Shown here piece by piece: positions 2,481 to 14,410 of a DNA stretch of 64,000 nucleotides (position 1 is its first letter; each line of letters opens with the position of its first letter). The DNA lies in IMG/VR virus record IMGVR_UViG_3300017716_001697, positions 96,001-160,000 of that record; one strand, 5' to 3'. A program made the position numbers and the translations under genes. The notes below the pieces were generated by a model. That model ran no database searches. It was not told where the DNA came from and was given only the letters and a program-made list of their open reading frames with translations. This stretch comes from a virus. Taxonomy: Duplodnaviria; Caudoviricetes.

Positions 2481-3317
2481 ATGTCAACAGGTACACCAGT
2501 AGTAGTTTCAAGAATACAGAATAGACGCGGCACACAGACCCAATTCGACAATCTATACCCAAAAGAATATACTTCTGCACCCGGCGCATCGTCGGTTCTT
2601 GCAGTAGTGACGGTAGATAGCACTGACGGGCTTGTGGTAGGGGCAAGACCACAAGTAATTAATGGTACTGGGCAATTTGTTCCAGGTACAACAATTCTTT
2701 CTGTGGACTCTATTACACAATTTACAGTATCTGCAGAGCCATTGATTGCACTGTCGGGCGCTATAGTTTATGTTAAGAAATATAACGGTCAAGGCGGCGC
2801 GACCGGCCCTAACATATTGCAACCCGGCGAATTAGCATTATGCACAGACACACGCCGAGTATTCATGGGCAACACGAATGGCGAATATGTAGAATTAGCA
2901 AGTATTGGCGCTGGACCTACTGATATCGTTACAACCCCATTGGTACTTTCATTGTTACCGGCGACTTGGACAGAAATTTCTGCCTTGACATACTTGCCTA
3001 CACCATTCATGGACATGTTATATAGCGTAGTTGATATTCCTACAGATAATCCTAATGATGTCGGATTAAATTTCTCTAAGAATGGCGAATTAAGAATAAC
3101 AGCGACAGGTACGGCAGCAACACTCGTGGACACATGCACAGCAATTAATGTTGCACCACTTGTGCCAAATCCTAATCCTCTATTACCCGACATACAGCCT
3201 GACATAAATTTCAAGGCAGGCTACGACGTCGGTGGCAACATTGTTGTATCATACATGCACAATTTTCCTATCCCTTTAACTTTAAGCGTAAGTTCTATTA
3301 TCTGGTCAGCACTTTAG
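2481..3317 (+). CDS. Structural protein with Mtd_N/hyaluronidase-N-like anchoring domain
   Basis: SRIQNRRGTQ...LQPGELALCTDTRRVFMGN signature; CTAAATA late-like box at 2457-2463. Confidence 0.6.
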   Translation: MSTGTPVVVSRIQNRRGTQTQFDNLYPKEYTSAPGASSVLAVVTVDSTDGLVVGARPQVINGTGQFVPGTTILSVDSITQFTVSAEPLIALSGAIVYVKKYNGQGGATGPNILQPGELALCTDTRRVFMGNTNGEYVELASIGAGPTDIVTTPLVLSLLPATWTEISALTYLPTPFMDMLYSVVDIPTDNPNDVGLNFSKNGELRITATGTAATLVDTCTAINVAPLVPNPNPLLPDIQPDINFKAGYDVGGNIVVSYMHNFPIPLTLSVSSIIWSAL

Positions 3318-3329
3318 AAAGTAAGTAAC

Positions 3330-3761
3330 ATGAGTTGGAACAATATTCCTAATAATGAGCGCCTTCACCTCTGGAAAAAACTAAGGGAAGACATTGCTGT
3401 CTTGTCTATCGAGCACCAGATGACTATGGTGGCTAAGTTCTTCGCCGATATGCCATTTGGGTCTAGGACTATCGATTATTACACACCGGCCGACTGGCCA
3501 ACACCGTGGGAAATCTTATTCTACGGCACCTTCTGCACAAGTTCTATTAGCATTCTGATGTTTTATACATTTGAACTTCTGCACACAAATCACCGCATAG
3601 ATCTTTACCTTGTCGAGGATAATGACGTATATTTGTTACCTGTTATAGATAACAAATTTGTACTCAATTACGAATTGGGCACGGTAAATAACTACTCAAA
3701 TATAGAAGACAACTTTAAGGTCTTACAGACATTTCATGACGAAATAAAGATGTTAAGATAA
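3330..3761 (+). CDS. Hypothetical protein
   Basis: 143 aa ORF, tight operon packing. Confidence 0.6.
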   Translation: MSWNNIPNNERLHLWKKLREDIAVLSIEHQMTMVAKFFADMPFGSRTIDYYTPADWPTPWEILFYGTFCTSSISILMFYTFELLHTNHRIDLYLVEDNDVYLLPVIDNKFVLNYELGTVNNYSNIEDNFKVLQTFHDEIKMLR

Positions 3762-8182: not shown

Positions 8183-8392
8183 GTGGAATATATCGAAGAA
8201 TATAGTGATGTGTATTGCAGCAAATCTCTGTGTGGTAAATTAATACCAACGGAACACATTAACTGGGATTACTGCTTCGATTATGATGGTAACGACCGTG
8301 TACATACATACGGTCGTTACCAGTGTCCATACTGTGGGCACGATGAGTCATTTGCGACAAACGATCCTTACGAGGACGATGAAGATGAATAA
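8183..8392 (+). CDS. Small Cys-containing hypothetical protein (possible zinc ribbon)
   Basis: CxxxxC and CPYC; GTG start. Confidence 0.5.
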   Translation: MEYIEEYSDVYCSKSLCGKLIPTEHINWDYCFDYDGNDRVHTYGRYQCPYCGHDESFATNDPYEDDEDE

Positions 8393-8828
8393 TACAATTA
8401 TCGGTGTTACAGCAGGAAGTTTTGATTTAACCCATGCTGGCCATTATTTGATGTTTGAAGAATGCAAAGGTCAGTGTGATTACCTTATTGTGTTTCTTCA
8501 GACAAACCCACATGTTGATAGGGCTGACAAAAACATTCCTGTACAGAGTATAAATGAGCGATACCTACAAGTGCGGGCCTGCAAATTCGTAGACGAAGTG
8601 GTAGTATATGAGACTGAACAAGATTTATATAACCTCTTGTGTTCTATAAAATATGATAAACGGTTTATTGGGGCAGATTGGCAAGGTAAATCGTTCACTG
8701 GCCATGACATTCCGGGTATAACGAACAAAGTTGTGTTCAATTCCAGAAATCATGGATTCTCCACAAGCAATCTAAGAAAAAGAGTATACGAGGCCGAACA
8801 TGTCAAAAATGCTGACTTGGCGAGTTAA
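8385..8828 (+). CDS. Cytidylyltransferase-like protein (TagD family)
   Basis: AGSFDLTHAGH HxGH motif, PVQSINERY, VDEVVVY, SRNHGFSTS; ATG 8385 overlaps upstream stop. Confidence 0.85.
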   Translation: MNNTIIGVTAGSFDLTHAGHYLMFEECKGQCDYLIVFLQTNPHVDRADKNIPVQSINERYLQVRACKFVDEVVVYETEQDLYNLLCSIKYDKRFIGADWQGKSFTGHDIPGITNKVVFNSRNHGFSTSNLRKRVYEAEHVKNADLAS

Positions 8829-9090
8829 TATAGAGTACGGACCTACCGCGGCTGACTGTCATTCTATTACAGTGCTGGCTACAACTAGTAAATCTGCGTT
8901 AAAAGAGGCCGAAATCTGGGCTAAAAAACATATGGTCAAGTCACCTATGTTTAGCGAACCGTGCCCTGCGGAGATGCCGCCTGATGTGCCTAATATTGAT
9001 GACGATTATACGGAAATTTTAGAATGGACTGTCGAAGAGGAAGAAGCATTCCTGGATATCTTAAATAATTCAGTAAATAAGAAAGATTAA
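8800..9090 (+). CDS. Hypothetical protein
   Basis: ORF in operon context. Confidence 0.5.
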   Translation: MSKMLTWRVNIEYGPTAADCHSITVLATTSKSALKEAEIWAKKHMVKSPMFSEPCPAEMPPDVPNIDDDYTEILEWTVEEEEAFLDILNNSVNKKD

Positions 9091-9092
9091 TA

Positions 9093-9371
9093 ATGGAACT
9101 CTTACGTTTTATTAAATGGCAATGGAATAGATTCCAGTATGACGAAATTGTACTTGGTTTCGACCTTATTGCTACATCTAGTACCTATGCATACGTGTGG
9201 TACACAAATAGTTTCTTGTTAGCATTACTAGTATCAGCGGGCGTATTCTTCGGAATTGTGCTAATTGCTGTGATTGGACAACGGATTCATAAACAGTGGA
9301 AGTTGTATATCCAGGACAGAGATAGAGAAGCACAGCGTATTGTGGATAGATTGCGCGGCGGATCGCGATAG
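9093..9371 (+). CDS. Small membrane protein
   Basis: Hydrophobic segment FLLALLVSAGVFFGIVLIAVIG followed by basic coil. Confidence 0.6.
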   Translation: MELLRFIKWQWNRFQYDEIVLGFDLIATSSTYAYVWYTNSFLLALLVSAGVFFGIVLIAVIGQRIHKQWKLYIQDRDREAQRIVDRLRGGSR

Positions 9372-9393
9372 TATATAATTTATACTGAAGACG

Positions 9394-9400
9394 ATAAATA
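9394..9400 (+). promoter_or_regulatory. T4-late-like promoter ATAAATA
   Basis: Recurrent motif upstream of late genes throughout the window. Confidence 0.55.
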
Positions 9401-9406
9401 AAATTA

Positions 9407-9425
9407 TGCAGAGATAGACTCTGCA
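9407..9425 (+). promoter_or_regulatory. Leader hairpin UGCAGAG-AUAGA-CUCUGCA upstream of nadM-Nudix
   Basis: Perfect 7-bp stem; 13-mer core identical to that upstream of NAMPT. Confidence 0.7.
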
Positions 9426-9452
9426 CTAAACAACTATTTCAAGGATTTTGAA

Positions 9453-10484
9453 ATGACAAAACAATTTGACACCCTAGTCCTAATCGGACGCTTTCAGCCA
9501 GTTCACAGTGCCCACGCAGAGATGATCCGCCGTGCGACCGAATTGGCAAAACAACTAATTATTATTGTTGGTTCTGCAAAGCAACCAAGAACCTTTAAGA
9601 ACCCCTGGTCCAGCACTGAGCGTCGAATGATGCTGCAAAACGTATGCGATACTATGCCGCAGAATAACTGTGCGATCCGCATCGAAGAAAATATCGACAC
9701 AATTTACAATAACCCGGCCTGGGCAGCTCGTGTGCAAACCATTGTTGGCAAGCATACGCAATCCGGAGATAGCATCGGTATTATCGGTCACAAGAAAGAC
9801 CCTTCAACAGAAGAATACCTCAACATGTTTCCACAGTGGGGATTACTCGAAGTTGAATTGATCCAACCACTCCATGCTACAAATATTCGGGATCTATATT
9901 TCAAAAGGAATGCAAACCTAAACTTCTTGCGTAATGTGGTACCACAGCCAGTAATGCGTTTGCTGGAAGGTTGGATTGATACTCCTGATTATCTGCAAGT
10001 CATTGCTGAACGTGAGTTTATAGAAAAGTACAAACAACAATACGCATCACTGCCGTACCCGCCAGTCTTTGTCACAGCAGATGCCGCAGTGATTCAATCC
10101 GGGCATGTATTGATGATCAAACGTCGTGCCGAACCAGGTAAAGGACTTTGGGCATTACCGGGTGGATATCTTAACGCAGATACTGACCGCAGTGTTGAGC
10201 ATACCATGTTACGTGAATTGCGTGAAGAAACTGGGCTAAAGGTTCCTCCTCCGGTTCTAAAAGGTAGCATTAAGGACCAGAGAATATTTGACGCAATTGA
10301 CCGCAGCCCACGAGGACGCATTATTACGGATTGTTTCAAGATTGTATTACCAGACGGTGCGTTACCTAAGGTAAGGGGTGATGACGATGCTGAAAAAGCA
10401 AAGTGGGTACCAATTAGCGAAGTAGATTCGAGCAAGTGTTTCGAAGATCACTACGATATGATTCAATGGGCCGTAGGAGCATAA
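9453..10484 (+). CDS. nadM: Bifunctional NMN adenylyltransferase / Nudix ADP-ribose hydrolase
   Basis: IGRFQPVHSAH, VGSA..PRTFKNPW, IGHKKD; Nudix box GG...RELREETG. Confidence 0.93.
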   Translation: MTKQFDTLVLIGRFQPVHSAHAEMIRRATELAKQLIIIVGSAKQPRTFKNPWSSTERRMMLQNVCDTMPQNNCAIRIEENIDTIYNNPAWAARVQTIVGKHTQSGDSIGIIGHKKDPSTEEYLNMFPQWGLLEVELIQPLHATNIRDLYFKRNANLNFLRNVVPQPVMRLLEGWIDTPDYLQVIAEREFIEKYKQQYASLPYPPVFVTADAAVIQSGHVLMIKRRAEPGKGLWALPGGYLNADTDRSVEHTMLRELREETGLKVPPPVLKGSIKDQRIFDAIDRSPRGRIITDCFKIVLPDGALPKVRGDDDAEKAKWVPISEVDSSKCFEDHYDMIQWAVGA

Positions 10485-10485
10485 C

Positions 10486-10809
10486 ATGTCCGGTATTAAG
10501 ATTAAATTAGATGATATTACCATAGGCCCTAAGGATCCGGACGAATTTCAGGCTGTGGTATGGGCATACGAATTAGATAAGCTAGGTTATCGCCGCACAA
10601 GTAATGCGTATTGTTTAATTGGTAGAGTAGACCGTGATGATTGGTATAAGGTCCTTGCTGTAAAGATGAGAGGGTGCCCTGCTGATTTCTATATGACTGA
10701 TGGTTCGGGTCTTAGTGACCGGTGGAAAGGGTATTATATCCGCCAATATACAACAGATAAACATACAGTGGCACCTGCCATTCTACGCAAGTTAAGAACA
10801 GCGCAATAA
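10486..10809 (+). CDS. Hypothetical protein
   Basis: ORF in operon. Confidence 0.6.
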   Translation: MSGIKIKLDDITIGPKDPDEFQAVVWAYELDKLGYRRTSNAYCLIGRVDRDDWYKVLAVKMRGCPADFYMTDGSGLSDRWKGYYIRQYTTDKHTVAPAILRKLRTAQ

Positions 10810-10818
10810 GGAAATAAT

Positions 10819-11064
10819 ATGAGTTATAATTTTGATTTTGCAGTCTCAGCCACCATTTCGCAGAAGATTGTCGAAGAAATGGTTAAGAAATGTGTTGAGG
10901 AACAGACAGGTAGGAAGGTAGCAGAGATTACCTTCAAAACCAAAGGCTACAGTGACCAAATGGATAGATACACATCATATGGATGTGATGGATGCACTGT
11001 GACATTTGCTGATGCGAATGGTATCGGACAGAGCATTTCACGTGGGCACAACGGAGATAGATAA
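10819..11064 (+). CDS. Hypothetical protein
   Basis: AAGGA RBS; ORF in operon. Confidence 0.6.
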   Translation: MSYNFDFAVSATISQKIVEEMVKKCVEEQTGRKVAEITFKTKGYSDQMDRYTSYGCDGCTVTFADANGIGQSISRGHNGDR

Positions 11065-11312
11065 TGCCATATTATGTCCGTATCAATCGAATGAATGGTA
11101 GAAATGATTTTTATAATCTTGCTAAAAATTTAGATGAACACGGATATGATGATCGAGTCGAGTATTTTAAGGGTGGGTGGATAGATAATTTAATATATAC
11201 TGCTGCTCCGCACTTAAAATTTGTGCTAGAAGAAGATGCATTAGCATACTCATTGACATATGGCACAACCTATAGTACAATTATACCAAGAGACATAAGT
11301 TTAACAGTATGA
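11064..11312 (+). CDS. Small protein of the F-x3-DA-x2-F-x-L paralogue family
   Basis: C-terminal LKFVLEEDALAYSLTYG. Confidence 0.55.
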   Translation: MPYYVRINRMNGRNDFYNLAKNLDEHGYDDRVEYFKGGWIDNLIYTAAPHLKFVLEEDALAYSLTYGTTYSTIIPRDISLTV

Positions 11313-11542
11313 TGTATTTTGTTTTTGGAGAAGAAGTACAAAAGAGATTTAATGTACCGGAGATTGTATCATTCAATGGTCCTTCAAAATATAGCATGCA
11401 TTATGCCGCTAATATTATGATAGAGACAACACACAATGATATTATATGCCGTAAGAATAGATATGGATCTATTGACAATTTTTCGAGGGAAGATGCTGCC
11501 TTTATAGTTTTAAAAGCAGTACCAATAAAGTCCTGGAGATAG
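11309..11542 (+). CDS. Small hypothetical protein
   Basis: ATGA overlap; FSREDAAFIVLKA. Confidence 0.55.
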   Translation: MMYFVFGEEVQKRFNVPEIVSFNGPSKYSMHYAANIMIETTHNDIICRKNRYGSIDNFSREDAAFIVLKAVPIKSWR

Positions 11543-11550
11543 ACTCTGGG
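11532..11550 (+). promoter_or_regulatory. Leader hairpin CCUGGAG-AUAGA-CUCUGGG upstream of NAMPT
   Basis: 7-bp stem with two GU pairs; same 13-mer as 9411-9423. Confidence 0.7.
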
Positions 11551-11576
11551 CAATTTTTTAATAAAGGATATTTATT

Positions 11577-13049
11577 ATGTTAGAACTAATCAAATCATTT
11601 AACATCATCTTGGCTGCTGACACATACAAGTTTGATCACGCTTACGAGTATCAAGAGGATACAAAGCAATTGTACTCGGTAATGGTGCCACGCAAAGCTA
11701 GCAAGTACTCCGACAAGATTGTAGCCGTTGGTCAGACAATGGTTGCCTATCTTATGTCTAAGATCAGAGTCACTGAAGAAATGATCGACGAAGCTGAAAT
11801 CGAAATTAATCAACAAGGTTATGAGTTTAACCGCAAGGGCTGGGAAATTATCGTTCGCGAAATGGGCGGCCGCCTTCCACTTGCTGTATATGCCGTCGAA
11901 GAAGGTCGTGTCGTGACACCACAGACACCTGTTATGGGCATTATCAATACAGACGACCGGTTTGCGTGGCTTGTTTCTTATGTGGAAACATGGGTGCAAG
12001 AAATTGTGTGGAAGATGTCTACTGTAGCAAGTATGAGTCGCGCCGCTCGCGCCATGTTTAAGAAATTTATGGTGTTGACTGGCGCAGATATGTCTATGCT
12101 GGAATATAAGTACCATAATTTCGGTGACCGTGGCGCAGATAGCCCCGACGAAGCACCTATCATGGCAGCAATTGCACATGCATTGTTGTTTAGTGGTAGT
12201 GATTGTGCTCGTGCAAACAGAATGATCAAGACTTTGTACAGAACTACAAAGGCATATACCAGTTCTGTGGTGGCCACCGAACACTCAGTTATGTGCTCGC
12301 ACTCCAATGCATTAACAAGGGATGATTTTGGTGCAGCTAAAATGGCTGTAGCACGTTTACACAAGGTTGTTGAACGTACTAAGGCAGGAATCGGTATTCC
12401 GTTGATGTCTGTTGTTATTGATACATATGACAGTCGCAGATTTGTACGTGACTATATGGGTGGAACGTTCAAAGACGAAATTATTAACTCCGGTGGCAAA
12501 ATGGTAATGCGCCCTGATAGCGGTGATATCAAAGTTGAGCCAGTTATGGTAATGAAGGACCTTGATTCCACGTTCGGTGCAACACTAAACGATGCTGGTT
12601 ACAAGGTATTGCATCCTGCGGTTGCTGTTCTCCAGGGCGACGGTGTTAAGATTACTACATTAGAGGGACTTCTGCAATCAGTAGTTGATGCCAATTTTTC
12701 TATTGATAATATTGCGTGCGGTTCTGGTGCAGGCATCACACACGAAGGTGCCCGTGATGACTTTAGCTTTAGCATGAAGGCTGTTGCACGTTACGATGGC
12801 ACACAGTGGATTCGTTTGCTGAAAGAGCCTATCACAGACCTCGGTAAGAAGTCGCTCACCGGCCTTGTACGTTGCTACGAAGATGAAAACGGTAATCTTG
12901 CAGTTAAGGATTACCTTGTTAATGGTATTGCACCAATTAACTCGTTCTTGCAAGAAGGTCCGGGATGGAGATTGTGGGCTAAGGATGGGCATCAAACACA
13001 CATCCAATCATTCGACTCTGCTAGAGAGTTTGCACGCGCCGGTCTGTAA
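11577..13049 (+). CDS. nadV: Nicotinamide phosphoribosyltransferase (NAMPT)
   Basis: ADTYKFDH, HNFGDRG, ATEHSVM, SVVIDTYD, MRPDSGD, QGDGV, FSMKA, KKSLTG motifs. Confidence 0.92.
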   Translation: MLELIKSFNIILAADTYKFDHAYEYQEDTKQLYSVMVPRKASKYSDKIVAVGQTMVAYLMSKIRVTEEMIDEAEIEINQQGYEFNRKGWEIIVREMGGRLPLAVYAVEEGRVVTPQTPVMGIINTDDRFAWLVSYVETWVQEIVWKMSTVASMSRAARAMFKKFMVLTGADMSMLEYKYHNFGDRGADSPDEAPIMAAIAHALLFSGSDCARANRMIKTLYRTTKAYTSSVVATEHSVMCSHSNALTRDDFGAAKMAVARLHKVVERTKAGIGIPLMSVVIDTYDSRRFVRDYMGGTFKDEIINSGGKMVMRPDSGDIKVEPVMVMKDLDSTFGATLNDAGYKVLHPAVAVLQGDGVKITTLEGLLQSVVDANFSIDNIACGSGAGITHEGARDDFSFSMKAVARYDGTQWIRLLKEPITDLGKKSLTGLVRCYEDENGNLAVKDYLVNGIAPINSFLQEGPGWRLWAKDGHQTHIQSFDSAREFARAGL

Positions 13050-13061
13050 ATGATCAGTCGT

Positions 13062-13088
13062 AGAAAAGGGGCTTTAAGCCCCTTTTCT
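13062..13088. terminator. Bidirectional intrinsic terminator
   Basis: AGAAAAGGGGC-N5-GCCCCTTTTCT between convergent genes. Confidence 0.85.
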
Positions 13089-14410
13089 TATTTCATAATC
13101 TTTTCTACAAATTCTTTCAATTTCTTACCATATTCTGTGTCAGCAAGTTTGTCAGTTGCTTTATCGATGCCACTCTGGCGTTTCTTTTCTTTAGGTGTCT
13201 CATCTGCTGTGTTATATGGCTTGTCAGCATTCTTCTTAGCAGCCTTATAACCTTCGCCGCTTGCTCTATCAGACATATCCCTGGATGATTTCTTTACATA
13301 AGACTTTAACGTGTCTTTGCTTACTTCGTTTAGAACTTCAGCCACAAATTTGCCTAATTTAGCGGCATATGTTGCCTCTACAGACTCTTGTAGTCGCGGA
13401 TCGCCCTTTGCCCTTGCATCCTTGTCAATTCGTGCATTATCTTCACGATCTTGTACCCTGCGCAGACCTTGTATGCGATTACTTGCTTGGCGCATGTTGG
13501 TAGGAACAGTATTTCGCACTTTATCCTTATAATTCTTCAATGTTTCTGAGTCGTCCTTCAATTCATTCACCTTTACTGTTTGTCCACGCCATGTATCCTT
13601 GGTGCCGTTTAACGTTTTTTCGTAACTAACATCATTAGATGGTGCAGAACGGTTGATTCCGCCCATACTGCCTTCGGATGCTACAACAGGTTTACCTGCC
13701 AGCCCTTTGAAGTTTGTATTCGCACCATGACCTAATGTCCTTCCCGATTTTCCTGACATAGCATCGCGCACTCCGCCAATATGTCTGCTACCGAAGCCCG
13801 GTTCTTCTGATTTTCTTGGGCCGTTATATGCACCCATCTTCACATTACCACCCTTGGCAACAAAATCAGCAATTGCAGGATCGTCTGTGTTATATGGTGC
13901 ACTATTATCTCTTTGTGCCGCTGGCTTATGAGCATACGAAACACGTTGGGTTGCTACTTTTGGTTGACCATTGCGATCAAGTGGTACACCACCCGGTCCC
14001 TTAACAAATCTTCCTTCGTCTACTTCTTTTGTGGTAGGTGCAGCTTTGACACCATGTTTATTCCTAATATTCATTTCGCGCTCTGCTCTACGCTCAGCCT
14101 TAGCAGTTGCTACAGGATCTTTAAAATCCATCGGTTGTTCTGAACGCCATTTCGACGCCTTTGCTGCCCATGTTTTTTCTGTACCCATGTCGAGTTCATT
14201 TATTTGCTCTTCATTTGCGGTAGCACGATCGTCTCTTTGTTGCTGCTCTGCACGATCTTGATCGGCATGATAGGCATTTCTTGCATGATCATTGCCCGGG
14301 ACTGCCGGCAAACCAGGTTTACCCTTGTGTTTCGCCAATAAATCTTTTACCCTGTTGCCGGCTTCGTCGGGAGTAGGGATGGAATTTTCGTTAATATCTG
14401 TTAGCTTCAT
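13088..14410 (-). CDS. Charged low-complexity putative head-internal/core protein (starts MKLTDINENS)
   Basis: ATAAATA at 14439-14433 and AAAGGA RBS precede ATG 14410; three NE-x4-T-(L/W)-x-x-(Y/A)-x-x-K repeats. Confidence 0.6.
   Translation of the reverse strand: MKLTDINENSIPTPDEAGNRVKDLLAKHKGKPGLPAVPGNDHARNAYHADQDRAEQQQRDDRATANEEQINELDMGTEKTWAAKASKWRSEQPMDFKDPVATAKAERRAEREMNIRNKHGVKAAPTTKEVDEGRFVKGPGGVPLDRNGQPKVATQRVSYAHKPAAQRDNSAPYNTDDPAIADFVAKGGNVKMGAYNGPRKSEEPGFGSRHIGGVRDAMSGKSGRTLGHGANTNFKGLAGKPVVASEGSMGGINRSAPSNDVSYEKTLNGTKDTWRGQTVKVNELKDDSETLKNYKDKVRNTVPTNMRQASNRIQGLRRVQDREDNARIDKDARAKGDPRLQESVEATYAAKLGKFVAEVLNEVSKDTLKSYVKKSSRDMSDRASGEGYKAAKKNADKPYNTADETPKEKKRQSGIDKATDKLADTEYGKKLKEFVEKIMK

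Follow-up and report, generated by a model that had tools for sequence, protein, structure and literature searches.

The two hairpins that precede the NAD-salvage genes of a freshwater jumbo phage (genome of 364,576 bp, i.e., 364.6 kb) are members of a widespread and apparently uncatalogued RNA leader motif of NAD-salvage genes, as documented by its structure, conservation, strand, spacing and specificity for NAD genes. The motif most likely governs the amount of NAD-salvage enzymes made, the level of this control being inferred, without expression data.

NAMPT and NMNAT constitute the NARP2-type pathway, through which phages replenish NAD+ once a defense has depleted it (bioRxiv 10.1101/2024.02.11.579819). 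The same pair is the main nicotinamide salvage route in many bacteria, and known NAD regulation relies on the DNA-binding repressors NrtR, NiaR and NadR and on two riboswitch classes found in other taxa. If the conclusion is correct, a post-transcriptional signal on these two genes would supply NAD homeostasis with a level of control that has been missing so far.

The NAD-salvage locus and its leader hairpins

The window, i.e., the whole stretch of phage DNA analyzed (64,000 nucleotides), contains the following elements, in which P1 and P2 designate the upstream and downstream hairpin of each leader and SD the Shine-Dalgarno sequence.

9393..9400, + strand: GATAAATA, T4-type late-promoter-like box, 6 nt 5' of P1 copy 1; promoter function inferred
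9407..9425, + strand: P1 copy 1, TGCAGAG-ATAGA-CTCTGCA, perfect 7-bp stem with a G-AUAGA-C top, in the nadM-Nudix leader
9426..9434, + strand: linker between P1 and P2 of copy 1, CTAAACAAC, short and G-free
9435..9455, + strand: P2 copy 1, TATTTCAA-GGATT-TTGAAATG, SD (GGA) in the loop and ATG in the 3' arm
9453..10484, + strand: nadM-Nudix (NMN adenylyltransferase / ADP-ribose pyrophosphatase), 343 aa, Pfam PF01467 (CTP_transf_like) and PF00293 (NUDIX)
11253..11281, + strand: sigma70-like promoter, TTGACA-17-TACAAT, 11/12 consensus, inside an upstream small ORF
11309..11542, + strand: 77-aa ORF whose TAG stop (11540-11542) lies within the P1 loop of copy 2
11532..11550, + strand: P1 copy 2, CCTGGAG-ATAGA-CTCTGGG, 7-bp stem with two G-U pairs, in the NAMPT leader
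11559..11577, + strand: P2 copy 2, TAATAAA-GGATA-TTTATTA, 7 bp, SD in the loop, 3' arm ending on the A of ATG
11577..13049, + strand: NAMPT / nadV (nicotinamide phosphoribosyltransferase), 490 aa, Pfam PF18127 (NAMPT_N) and PF04095 (NAPRTase)
13062..13088, + strand: strong terminator-like hairpin of 12 pairs with a T-rich tail, closing the NAMPT transcription unit

Homologues of nadM-Nudix, 30–72% identical, occur in phages and bacteria and homologues of NAMPT were likewise found; the 77-aa ORF has neither a Pfam match nor a homologue at related loci. A search of the window for GAGATAGACTCTG gives two exact matches on the + strand, 9411-9423 and 11536-11548, which end 29 nt 5' of the ATG at 9453 and 28 nt 5' of the ATG at 11577, respectively; neither the window nor the genome as a whole contains a further exact copy, and the hairpin is missing from all four small ORFs that separate nadM-Nudix from NAMPT. 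These positions and distances, the 7-bp stems around AUAGA (one perfect, the other with two G-U pairs) and the lack of the element in the four intervening genes had been claimed in the initial annotation, made from the sequence alone, and all held when the positions were reread and the leaders folded; of the promoter box that it had placed 6 nt before copy 1 the sequence held, whereas the promoter function is only inferred.

The first P1 folds with −9.7 kcal/mol (z −4.1) and is the top match of the covariance model in the genome (28.9 bits). The second is also the last such match (25.3 bits); its folding barely beats that of shuffled sequences (z −0.5 over 66 nt, z −1.9 over 27 nt) and its CAATTTTTT tail confers upon it a terminator-like score. 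The first P2, a stem of 8 bp, is present in both the MFE and the centroid folds and is among just 10 such hairpins of ≥6 bp at the 294 gene starts of the genome. Sharing of the 13-mer is weak evidence when taken alone because 121 same-strand 13-mer pairs exist in the window, which makes an exact identity of this length nothing unusual, and when ≤2 mismatches were allowed at least two matches were obtained in 31 of 100 shuffles. The significance of the hairpin pair rests instead on its placement and on its conservation in relatives.

In phage copies a promoter, either late or sigma70-type, is often located just 5' of P1, and many phage nadM leaders have a TAAATA box 3–8 nt 5' of P1. It is conceivable, on the basis of a consensus match only, that the sigma70-like promoter at 11253..11281 drives the 77-aa ORF and NAMPT; sigma70-like consensus matches in this region are as numerous as expected from shuffling.

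Architecture and covariation of the motif

Among relatives, P1 consists of an invariant G-ANAGA-C top, mostly AUAGA, placed on an uninterrupted, freely covarying stem of 5–11 bp. The constant positions are the closing G-C pair and A1, A3, G4 and A5 of the loop, amounting to ~6 nt, while position 2, which can be U, C, A or G, is the sole variable base of the loop, a pentaloop in most copies. In 35 phage instances collected by hand, 87% of the cells are paired, compared with 49% in shuffles, and changes on both sides are seen at 8 of the 9 pairs. Essentially the same result (86% vs 49%) was obtained with 99 distinct matches of the covariance model; in these, pairs 5–10 are formed in 91–99% of the cases using all four Watson-Crick types, the closing G-C is invariant, and pairing collapses to 27–46% when the partner arm is slid along.

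In the 141 distinct instances the distance from the center of the loop to the AUG has a median of 39 nt (IQR 37–41) despite stem lengths that vary from 4 to 11 bp, and the linker separating P1 from P2 contains only 9% G. P2, which encloses the SD sequence and abuts the AUG, is present in 104 of the 141 instances (~74%); by comparison, such hairpins of ≥4 bp are found at 50 and those of ≥6 bp at 10 of the 294 gene starts of this genome. The stems of P1 and P2 covary independently, without alternative pairing, and the sequence of P2 is itself strongly conserved in bacteria. The P1 loop is complementary to downstream sequences in some copies and not in others. No conserved GGA is present in the P1 of phage copies, GGA-containing loops being found in P2 and in an additional upstream hairpin, P0, with a GGAUU or GGAAC loop, that many bacterial first-gene leaders possess. 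With P0 and further leader sequence upstream, P1 is not 5'-terminal in bacteria. The U tract following P1 is inconsistent in bacteria, where many copies lack it, and U runs follow many of the AT-rich phage copies.

The evidence points to an RNA and not a DNA element. Bacterial loci contain 134 occurrences of GAYAGAC on the strand of the gene against 19 on the opposite strand, a bias that becomes 89 to 1 when a stem of ≥5 bp is required, and the motif stems contain 118 G-U as opposed to 28 A-C combinations.

Distribution and gene specificity

The 141 instances include IMG/VR phages, cultured phages and many bacteria. Among the cultured carriers are the jumbo phage LucasX, DSS3P8 and the T4-like cyanophage Synechococcus B23; the bacterial carriers comprise many Gamma- and Betaproteobacteria, among them the plant pathogen Ralstonia solanacearum, and Campylobacterota; the hosts of the phage carriers are Alpha- and Gammaproteobacteria and cyanobacteria. 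Conservation thus spans Campylobacterota, plant pathogens, T4-like cyanophages and jumbo as well as other large tailed phages.

In the 364.6-kb genome the covariance model finds two matches at E ≤ 10, both before NAD genes; in complete jumbo-phage relatives (424, 345 and 524 kb) all matches at E ≤ 0.01 fall at the NAD locus and in five bacterial genomes the matches beyond NAD genes are chance-like. The downstream gene is NadM in 44 cases, NAMPT in 35 and, in a few, an SPFH gene or the gene that opens a nadA-nadM operon. Since the bacterial loci were gathered via NadM, the association of motif and NadM partly reflects this choice; in one incomplete phage contig the NAMPT hairpin is present and a full NadM is missing. 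The motif travels with the NAD cassette across unrelated phages and hosts, and no third co-conserved protein, a regulator gene included, was found in the cassette. RSP15 and a Methylosinus plasmid retain the two-hairpin layout with a different upstream loop that is the same in both leaders of each genome, and such lineage-specific loops are more in keeping with a macromolecule that co-evolves with the loop it reads than with a fixed metabolite.

A cmscan search against Rfam 15 with permissive filters (E ≤ 10), covering positions 8800-13300 of the window and five carrier loci, returned no NAD riboswitch and left the motif unmatched, and no published description of it was found in the literature searched. 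The initial annotation had interpreted the hairpins as a pathway-specific, RNA-level cis element of NAD-salvage genes matching no described NAD regulator, with wobbles favoring RNA over a DNA operator. This interpretation held: of the checks it had proposed, conservation upstream of homologues and covariation were both found and an Rfam match was absent, and strand bias and G-U excess across relatives bear out the argument from wobbles. The role in infection that it had envisaged needs qualification, the element being neither phage- nor infection-specific and being widespread before bacterial nadM and nadV.

A proposed translational operator

The reading that we favor, and to which we attach about an even chance in the absence of binding or expression data for any copy and of RNA runs containing this phage, is that of a translational operator whose P1 loop is read by a factor acting in trans. 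Translation as the step that is controlled, the protein nature of the reader and the identity of this reader are all inferred. In this view, the leader would comprise two modules, namely P1, with its stem of any sequence and invariant top, and a weak P2 carrying the SD in its loop, separated by a short G-poor linker. The trans-acting factor would recognize the P1 loop and, because P1 borders the ribosome-binding region on its 5' side, its occupancy could block or permit 30S loading, the SD being already half-hidden by P2; the output of nadM and nadV would be set jointly.

The properties of such an operator that are seen are a sequence-specific conservation of the loop, a free stem and a fixed position 37–41 nt from the AUG. 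About six conserved nucleotides are typical of protein-binding hairpins, which speaks for a protein reader. The most economical candidates would be NadM-Nudix or NAMPT, which always accompany the motif and may act as feedback repressors, as does ThrRS on thrS or PyrR on the pyr leaders. Feedback by NadM-Nudix, or a processing site, had been suggested by the initial annotation and is still only a proposal: comparison of motif-bearing with motif-lacking loci revealed no basic-residue signature in NadM or NAMPT and discriminating positions numbered three in NadM (D, P, Q) and none in NAMPT, so that residue signatures lend no support to either binder; furthermore, neither protein is known to bind RNA. 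The invariance of the loop from Campylobacterota to phages would also be compatible with a metabolite or with a host factor of universal occurrence. It also remains possible that more than the P1 loop is read, because the P2 sequence is so strongly conserved in bacteria.

Alternative explanations

The main rival, which is possible, is a small riboswitch in which NAD+, NMN, nicotinamide, ADP-ribose or PRPP is a direct ligand of P1, perhaps with participation of the linker and P2, and stabilizes the SD-sequestering P2 upon binding; ligand binding is hypothetical. This reading is favored by the strict association with NAD synthesis genes, by the invariance of the loop across very distant hosts and phages, by the retention of an SD-sequestering platform, by the lack of a regulator gene co-conserved in the cassette and by the variable position 2 of the loop, which would suit a flipped-out base. 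Very small hairpin-loop aptamers do occur naturally, as in guanidine-II and in the terminator-embedded HMP-PP aptamer. On the other hand, the ~6 conserved nucleotides come without internal loop, junction or conserved pseudoknot, loop/downstream complementarity is inconsistent between copies, P1 and P2 covary independently without alternative pairing, the tight spacing to the AUG suggests a steric mechanism, Rfam riboswitch models are unmatched and two lineages swap the loop in both leaders at once, a change that a fixed ligand pocket would not be expected to accommodate. A bolder version, again no more than a possibility, is that P1 and P2 form a third, minimal class of NAD-pathway riboswitch, common to bacteria and phages, whose pentaloop senses NAD+, NMN, nicotinamide or ADP-ribose; were the riboswitch reading true, the phage NARP2-type cassette would self-activate when the host defense drains NAD.

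It is unlikely that P1 is the site of a ubiquitous host factor (an RNase, CsrA/RsmA, Hfq, a ribosomal protein or the 30S itself) instead of an enzyme encoded in the cassette, phages inheriting and retaining the site since the factor is everywhere. The breadth of loop conservation over bacteria and phages speaks for it, as does the resemblance of the bacterial P0 loops and the P2 GGA loop to paired CsrA sites; the loops found upstream in RSP15 (ACAGGGAGU) conform to the CsrA consensus. However, the P1 of phage copies lacks a conserved GGA, a general factor leaves unexplained the restriction of P1 to NAD genes on the genome scale, and P1 is present in Betaproteobacteria, which are not known to have CsrA.

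A generic structural element (a 5' stabilizer, processing site, leaky intrinsic terminator or PeSL-type promoter-linked stem-loop) is very unlikely. The promoter often found just before phage P1 would place the hairpin at the mRNA 5' end, copy 2 with CAATTTTTT is terminator-like and U runs follow many phage copies; but for none of these roles would the loop have to be invariant, bacterial copies have an inconsistent U tract and are not 5'-terminal, the hairpin lies 3' of promoters rather than between −35 and −10, and it is missing from the other ~290 gene starts of the genome. An intrinsic terminator in particular is rejected in view of the many bacterial copies without U tract and of a start codon within about 29 nt downstream.

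A DNA operator or a chance repeat, suggested by the fact that known NAD regulators act on DNA and that shared 13-mers are common in the window, can be all but excluded, the former (NrtR, NiaR or NadR) by covarying arms around a fixed asymmetric GANAGAC center, the reverse of a palindromic operator, by the strand bias and by the G-U excess, the latter by 141 independent instances.

Implications

The compact element of ~20 nt helps to find members of the NAD regulon, such as the SPFH gene. What senses NAD status and whether phages keep host control logic are questions now testable in cultured systems (R. solanacearum, Pseudoalteromonas and phages LucasX, DSS3P8 and B23).

Relationship to known regulatory systems

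The closest parallels of a translational operator are enzyme-autoregulated ones of the ThrRS/thrS type of E. coli (also T4 gp43 and RegA, and PyrR/pyr of B. subtilis), in which the loop and not the stem gives specificity and the hairpin lies within ~50 nt of the AUG, beside the SD, in the pathway's own genes; the tight start-codon spacing of P1 is compatible with a similar competition against the 30S. PyrR offers a precedent for a protein of phosphoribosyltransferase fold that reads a hairpin loop, but it acts by transcription attenuation and a consistent terminator is absent in our motif. Unlike these operators, the motif has an unidentified binding protein and an unrelated loop sequence and is common to bacteria and many unrelated phages.

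The NAD+-I (nadA motif) and NAD+-II (pnuC motif) riboswitches are likewise cis-acting leaders of NAD genes with the SD in a structure. However, the two tandem domains with bulged stems of NAD+-I are absent, the core-SD pseudoknot of NAD+-II has no counterpart, complementarity between P1 loop and downstream sequence not being conserved, and both taxa (Acidobacteria and Streptococcus for the known classes) and genes (nadA and pnuC vs nadM and nadV) differ; with no Rfam match either, membership in the two classes is rejected. Guanidine-II (mini-ykkC) resembles the motif in its small free-stem hairpins, conserved G-C-closed loop, variable linker and SD near the second hairpin, but it has two ACGR tetraloops in place of ANAGA and an SD loop; the loops of the motif cannot kiss by Watson-Crick pairing and its genes are unrelated to guanidine.

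CsrA/RsmA operators share the two hairpins, one of them at the SD, and the GGA of the P2 and bacterial P0 loops; they differ in that the phage P1 loop has no GGA and the motif is limited to NAD genes and present in lineages thought to be CsrA-free. The PeSL (promoter-early stem-loop) of T4-type phages is also an intergenic hairpin near early promoters, but it is nested between −35 and −10 and dispersed before many genes, whereas P1 follows the promoter, has an invariant loop and is tied to two genes; membership is rejected, the promoter boxes being upstream of P1 and the motif having only two copies in 364.6 kb and occurring in bacterial chromosomes as well.

NrtR operators control the same targets, namely nadM-nadV and prs-nadV operons (Rodionov et al. 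2008, PMC2330246, in which no hairpin is mentioned), but are DNA palindromes with conserved arms, as opposed to the variable arms, asymmetric center and RNA-type wobbles of P1. Further upstream in bacterial loci lies a palindrome, TAGTGGC-N5-GCCACTA, that is a better operator candidate than P1 and that, in several of these loci, is likely a site of the NrtR kind.

The two leaders

The 13-mer GAGATAGACTCTG is present twice on the + strand, at 9411-9423 and 11536-11548; these are its only occurrences both in the window and in the whole genome (364,576 bp), of which the window is bases 96,001-160,000. The copies end 29 and 28 nt, respectively, before the start codons of nadM-Nudix and NAMPT (nadV). 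Each copy constitutes the core of a 7-bp hairpin, hereafter P1, having the loop AUAGA; the stem is TGCAGAG/CTCTGCA in the first copy and CCTGGAG/CTCTGGG, with two G-U pairs, in the second. The initial annotation had reported these positions, distances to the ATGs, stems and loops, all of which held on direct re-reading. A second hairpin, P2, adjoins each start codon:

9435-9455, + strand: P2 of the first leader, GGA of the Shine-Dalgarno (SD) sequence in the loop, ATG at the 3' foot
9453, + strand: ATG of NadM-Nudix, 343 aa, cytidylyltransferase-like and NUDIX domains
11559-11577, + strand: P2 of the second leader, likewise with GGA in the loop and ATG at the 3' foot
11577, + strand: ATG of NAMPT/NadV, 490 aa, NAMPT_N and NAPRTase domains

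The sequence GATAAATA is positioned 6 nt 5' of the first hairpin, and the loop of the second P1 contains the stop codon (TAG) of a 77-aa ORF lying upstream. A 181-aa cytidylyltransferase-like protein (PF01467) is encoded at 8283-8828, ~600 bp upstream of nadM-Nudix and without P1; this second protein of its type is kept in two of the fetched loci (L001 and L020) and its role is unassigned.

Taken alone, the shared 13-mer is no better than chance: identical same-strand 13-mer pairs number 121 in the window and 4,377 in the genome, and the stability of the second P1 scarcely exceeds that of shuffled sequence. The case for P1 rests instead on its placement and on its conservation in relatives, and on these grounds the reading of P1 as a chance repeat was rejected.

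Conservation among phages

The source phage, a jumbo phage that has not been cultivated, has direct terminal repeats and is known from a freshwater metagenome alone; a near-identity DNA search of GenBank phages gave zero matches to it, and no RNA run covers this stretch of DNA. Phage loci were fetched from IMG/VR around homologues of NAMPT (42-73% identity) and NadM (30-71%). Most of them have a hairpin that shares the G-AUAGA-C top on a quite different stem, invariably on the gene strand and 22-38 nt ahead of NAMPT, NadM or a small ORF leading into nadM; in phages it is often directly preceded by a promoter, either TTGACA-17-TATAAT or a TAAATA box of the late type. The 35 distinct phage copies align without gaps, the closing G and C and loop positions A1, A3, G4 and A5 being invariant, while position 2 is U in all copies but one (C in L006). 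Stem pairing is found in 87% of cells vs 49% in shuffles, and both sides have changed in 8 of 9 pairs.

Among cultured phages the motif precedes both genes in Xanthomonas jumbo phage LucasX, Roseobacter phage DSS3P8 and Synechococcus phage B23; XaC1, Vibrio phage 2.275.O and the most distant loci lack it. One contig (L006, only 64% complete) has the NAMPT hairpin and lacks a full NadM. In another (L014), a 310-aa ORF at 2759-3746 with its own P1 lies directly ahead of a NAMPT match beginning only at query residue 67; this ORF, homologues of which occur in L013, L019 and L031, could have inserted into the 5' end of NAMPT or taken its place.

Bacterial carriers

When R1, a covariance model of P1, was run on 80 bacterial contigs encoding NadM-Nudix, 101 sites were returned, nearly all on the gene strand and located just before nadM or between nadM and the next gene. 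A direct scan of the bacterial loci for GAYAGAC gave 134 occurrences on the gene strand vs 19 on the opposite one; with a stem of at least 5 bp the figures become 89 vs 1, the single exception preceding a divergent NAMPT gene. The downstream gene is NadM in 44 cases and NAMPT in 35, the others including an SPFH/Band-7 protein, quinolinate synthase, which opens a nadA-nadM operon, and, in Sulfurovum, an ORF of 73 aa. Among the bacteria with the motif are Pseudoalteromonas, Hahella, Microbulbifer, Cellvibrio, Thiothrix, Budvicia, Bordetella, Sulfurovum and Sulfuricurvum, as well as Ralstonia solanacearum and Cupriavidus metallidurans. In 99 distinct covariance-model matches pairs 5-10 are paired in 91-99%, with all Watson-Crick types represented, and the closing G-C is invariant; the loop consensus is ANAGA, with U at position 2 far more frequent than C, A or G, and a few loops have six nucleotides.

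Bacterial leaders of the first gene often add, upstream of P1, a hairpin with the loop GGAUU or GGAAC. This element, P0, has a covarying stem, lies 8-17 nt 5' of P1, accompanies it in 24 of the 81 bacterial leaders and is nearly absent from those of phages. Farther upstream of bacterial nadM leaders than P0 recurs the palindrome TAGTGGC-N5-GCCACTA, which is likely a repressor operator (NrtR-type) at the promoter and, by inference, more likely than P1 to be bound by a repressor; it would probably add a DNA-level layer over the RNA motif. The regulon has a third member that was not expected, an SPFH/Band-7 gene (~305 aa) 3' of nadV, which has its own P1 in five gammaproteobacteria.

Examples of elements in bacterial loci

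P0 hairpin: L061:2385-2410, L063:2380-2420, L089:1140-1165, L134:3650-3680
Palindrome TAGTGGC-N5-GCCACTA: L071:1940-1965, L078:2385-2410, L082:1-35, L083:2445-2470
SPFH/Band-7 gene with P1: L071:4554-5573, L073:5028-6002, L077:5082-, L081:5164-, L102:5616-

Specificity within genomes

At E ≤ 10, R1 has just two matches in the genome of this phage, namely the two NAD-gene leaders. In complete related genomes (424, 345 and 524 kb) all matches at E ≤ 0.01 fall at the NAD locus, one genome having three copies there, and in five whole bacterial genomes the matches outside the NAD loci resemble chance. A class-wide R1 search of 151 genomes was insensitive under strict filters, missing a known carrier and returning terminator-like false matches; a terminator-like repeat, AAAAGGGG-ACAGA-CCCCTTTT, present in many copies in an unrelated 2.0-Mb genome (G157; L158 and L160), is a source of R1 false positives.

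Anatomy of the leader

Over 141 distinct instances the contiguous P1 stem spans 4-11 bp (median 7), the distance from loop centre to start codon has a median of 39 nt (IQR 37-41), and the linker between P1 and P2 is poor in G (9%). At pairs 2-8, G-U outnumbers A-C by 118 to 28, and the structure therefore resides in the RNA of the gene strand. An SD-in-loop hairpin adjoins the AUG in 104 of the 141; in this phage such hairpins of at least 6 bp are found at only 10 of 294 gene starts, both NAD genes included.

At eight further genes of this phage an SD-in-loop hairpin (6-11 bp) ends at the start codon without a P1 partner (genome coordinates 27842, 64437, 217664, 167568 and 229123, among others). 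In XaC1 (before 4277 and 5971 of L050) and Vibrio phage 2.275.O (before 657 and 5953 of L051) a nearly identical SD hairpin, CUAAGGGAGUCUUAG, fronts both NAD genes despite their differing hosts.

A putative translational operator and its reader

The structure, conservation and gene specificity of P1 are firmly supported; that control is exerted on translation, and by whom P1 is read, are inferences. P1 and P2 together most likely constitute a translational operator whose conserved loop would be recognized by a trans-acting factor, a reading suggested by the conserved apical loop, the free stem, the fixed distance within the ribosome-binding region and the adjoining hairpin that hides the SD.

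In the absence of binding data, a protein is the favored reader, because conservation is limited to so few nucleotides, the spacing is tightly kept, P1 and P2 have no alternative pairing between them, and Ralstonia phage RSP15 and Methylosinus OB3b plasmid pOB3b3 keep the two-hairpin layout while swapping the upstream loop alike in both leaders. Their loops differ from ANAGA, being AGGGA/ACGGA in RSP15 (L053, ~35 nt before starts 4001 and 5068) and GGAGU in the plasmid (L174, before starts 2349 and 3489), with a single type per genome for its two leaders. The RSP15 loops resemble ACANGGANGU, the consensus of CsrA.

Since the motif travels with the two-gene cassette among phages and hosts that are unrelated, without any third gene conserved alongside, NadM and NAMPT would be the most economical candidates, even if there is no evidence here that either binds RNA. 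The residues separating motif-bearing from motif-lacking proteins amount to three non-basic positions in NadM and none in NAMPT, which lends neither protein support as the reader.

Alternative explanations

Two alternatives to a cassette-encoded reader remain possible: a small riboswitch in place of a protein-read operator, against which stand the few conserved nucleotides and the lack of alternative pairing, and recognition of P1 by a universal host factor. A third cassette protein as regulator was rejected, since all-against-all BLAST of the ORFs of 43 phage-type loci showed NadM and NAMPT to be the only proteins in common. Pairing of the loop with a downstream UCUAU complement in a conserved pseudoknot was likewise discarded, L002 having it in full, a few other copies in part and most not at all. 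P1 is neither a palindromic DNA operator, its arms varying and its center being asymmetric, nor a terminator with features consistent across copies, nor a promoter-nested stem-loop (PeSL).

No Rfam 15 family matches the window or five carrier loci at E ≤ 10, and the motif-discovery catalogues and NAD-regulation papers searched make no mention of nadV, nadM, Nudix or such a hairpin. The proposal, made from sequence alone, of a pathway-specific RNA element unlike described regulators is supported in its core: of the checks it had suggested, conservation upstream of homologues and stem covariation were both found and the Rfam comparison gave no match, and to these is added the gene-strand bias.

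Other observations at NAD loci

A NADAR-domain protein is encoded in 6 of the 43 phage-type loci; in L009 (3364-3930; also in L008, L014, L026 and L052) it lies between nadM and NAMPT (PF08719, E 2e-49).

Distant phage cassettes without G-ANAGA-C share, before both nadM and NAMPT, a leader hairpin GUAGGRYC...GRYCYGAAA, conceivably a second, unrelated NAD-gene leader motif:

L015: 2780-2855 and 3920-4001
L016: 2200-2283 and 3900-3977
L032: 2920-2998
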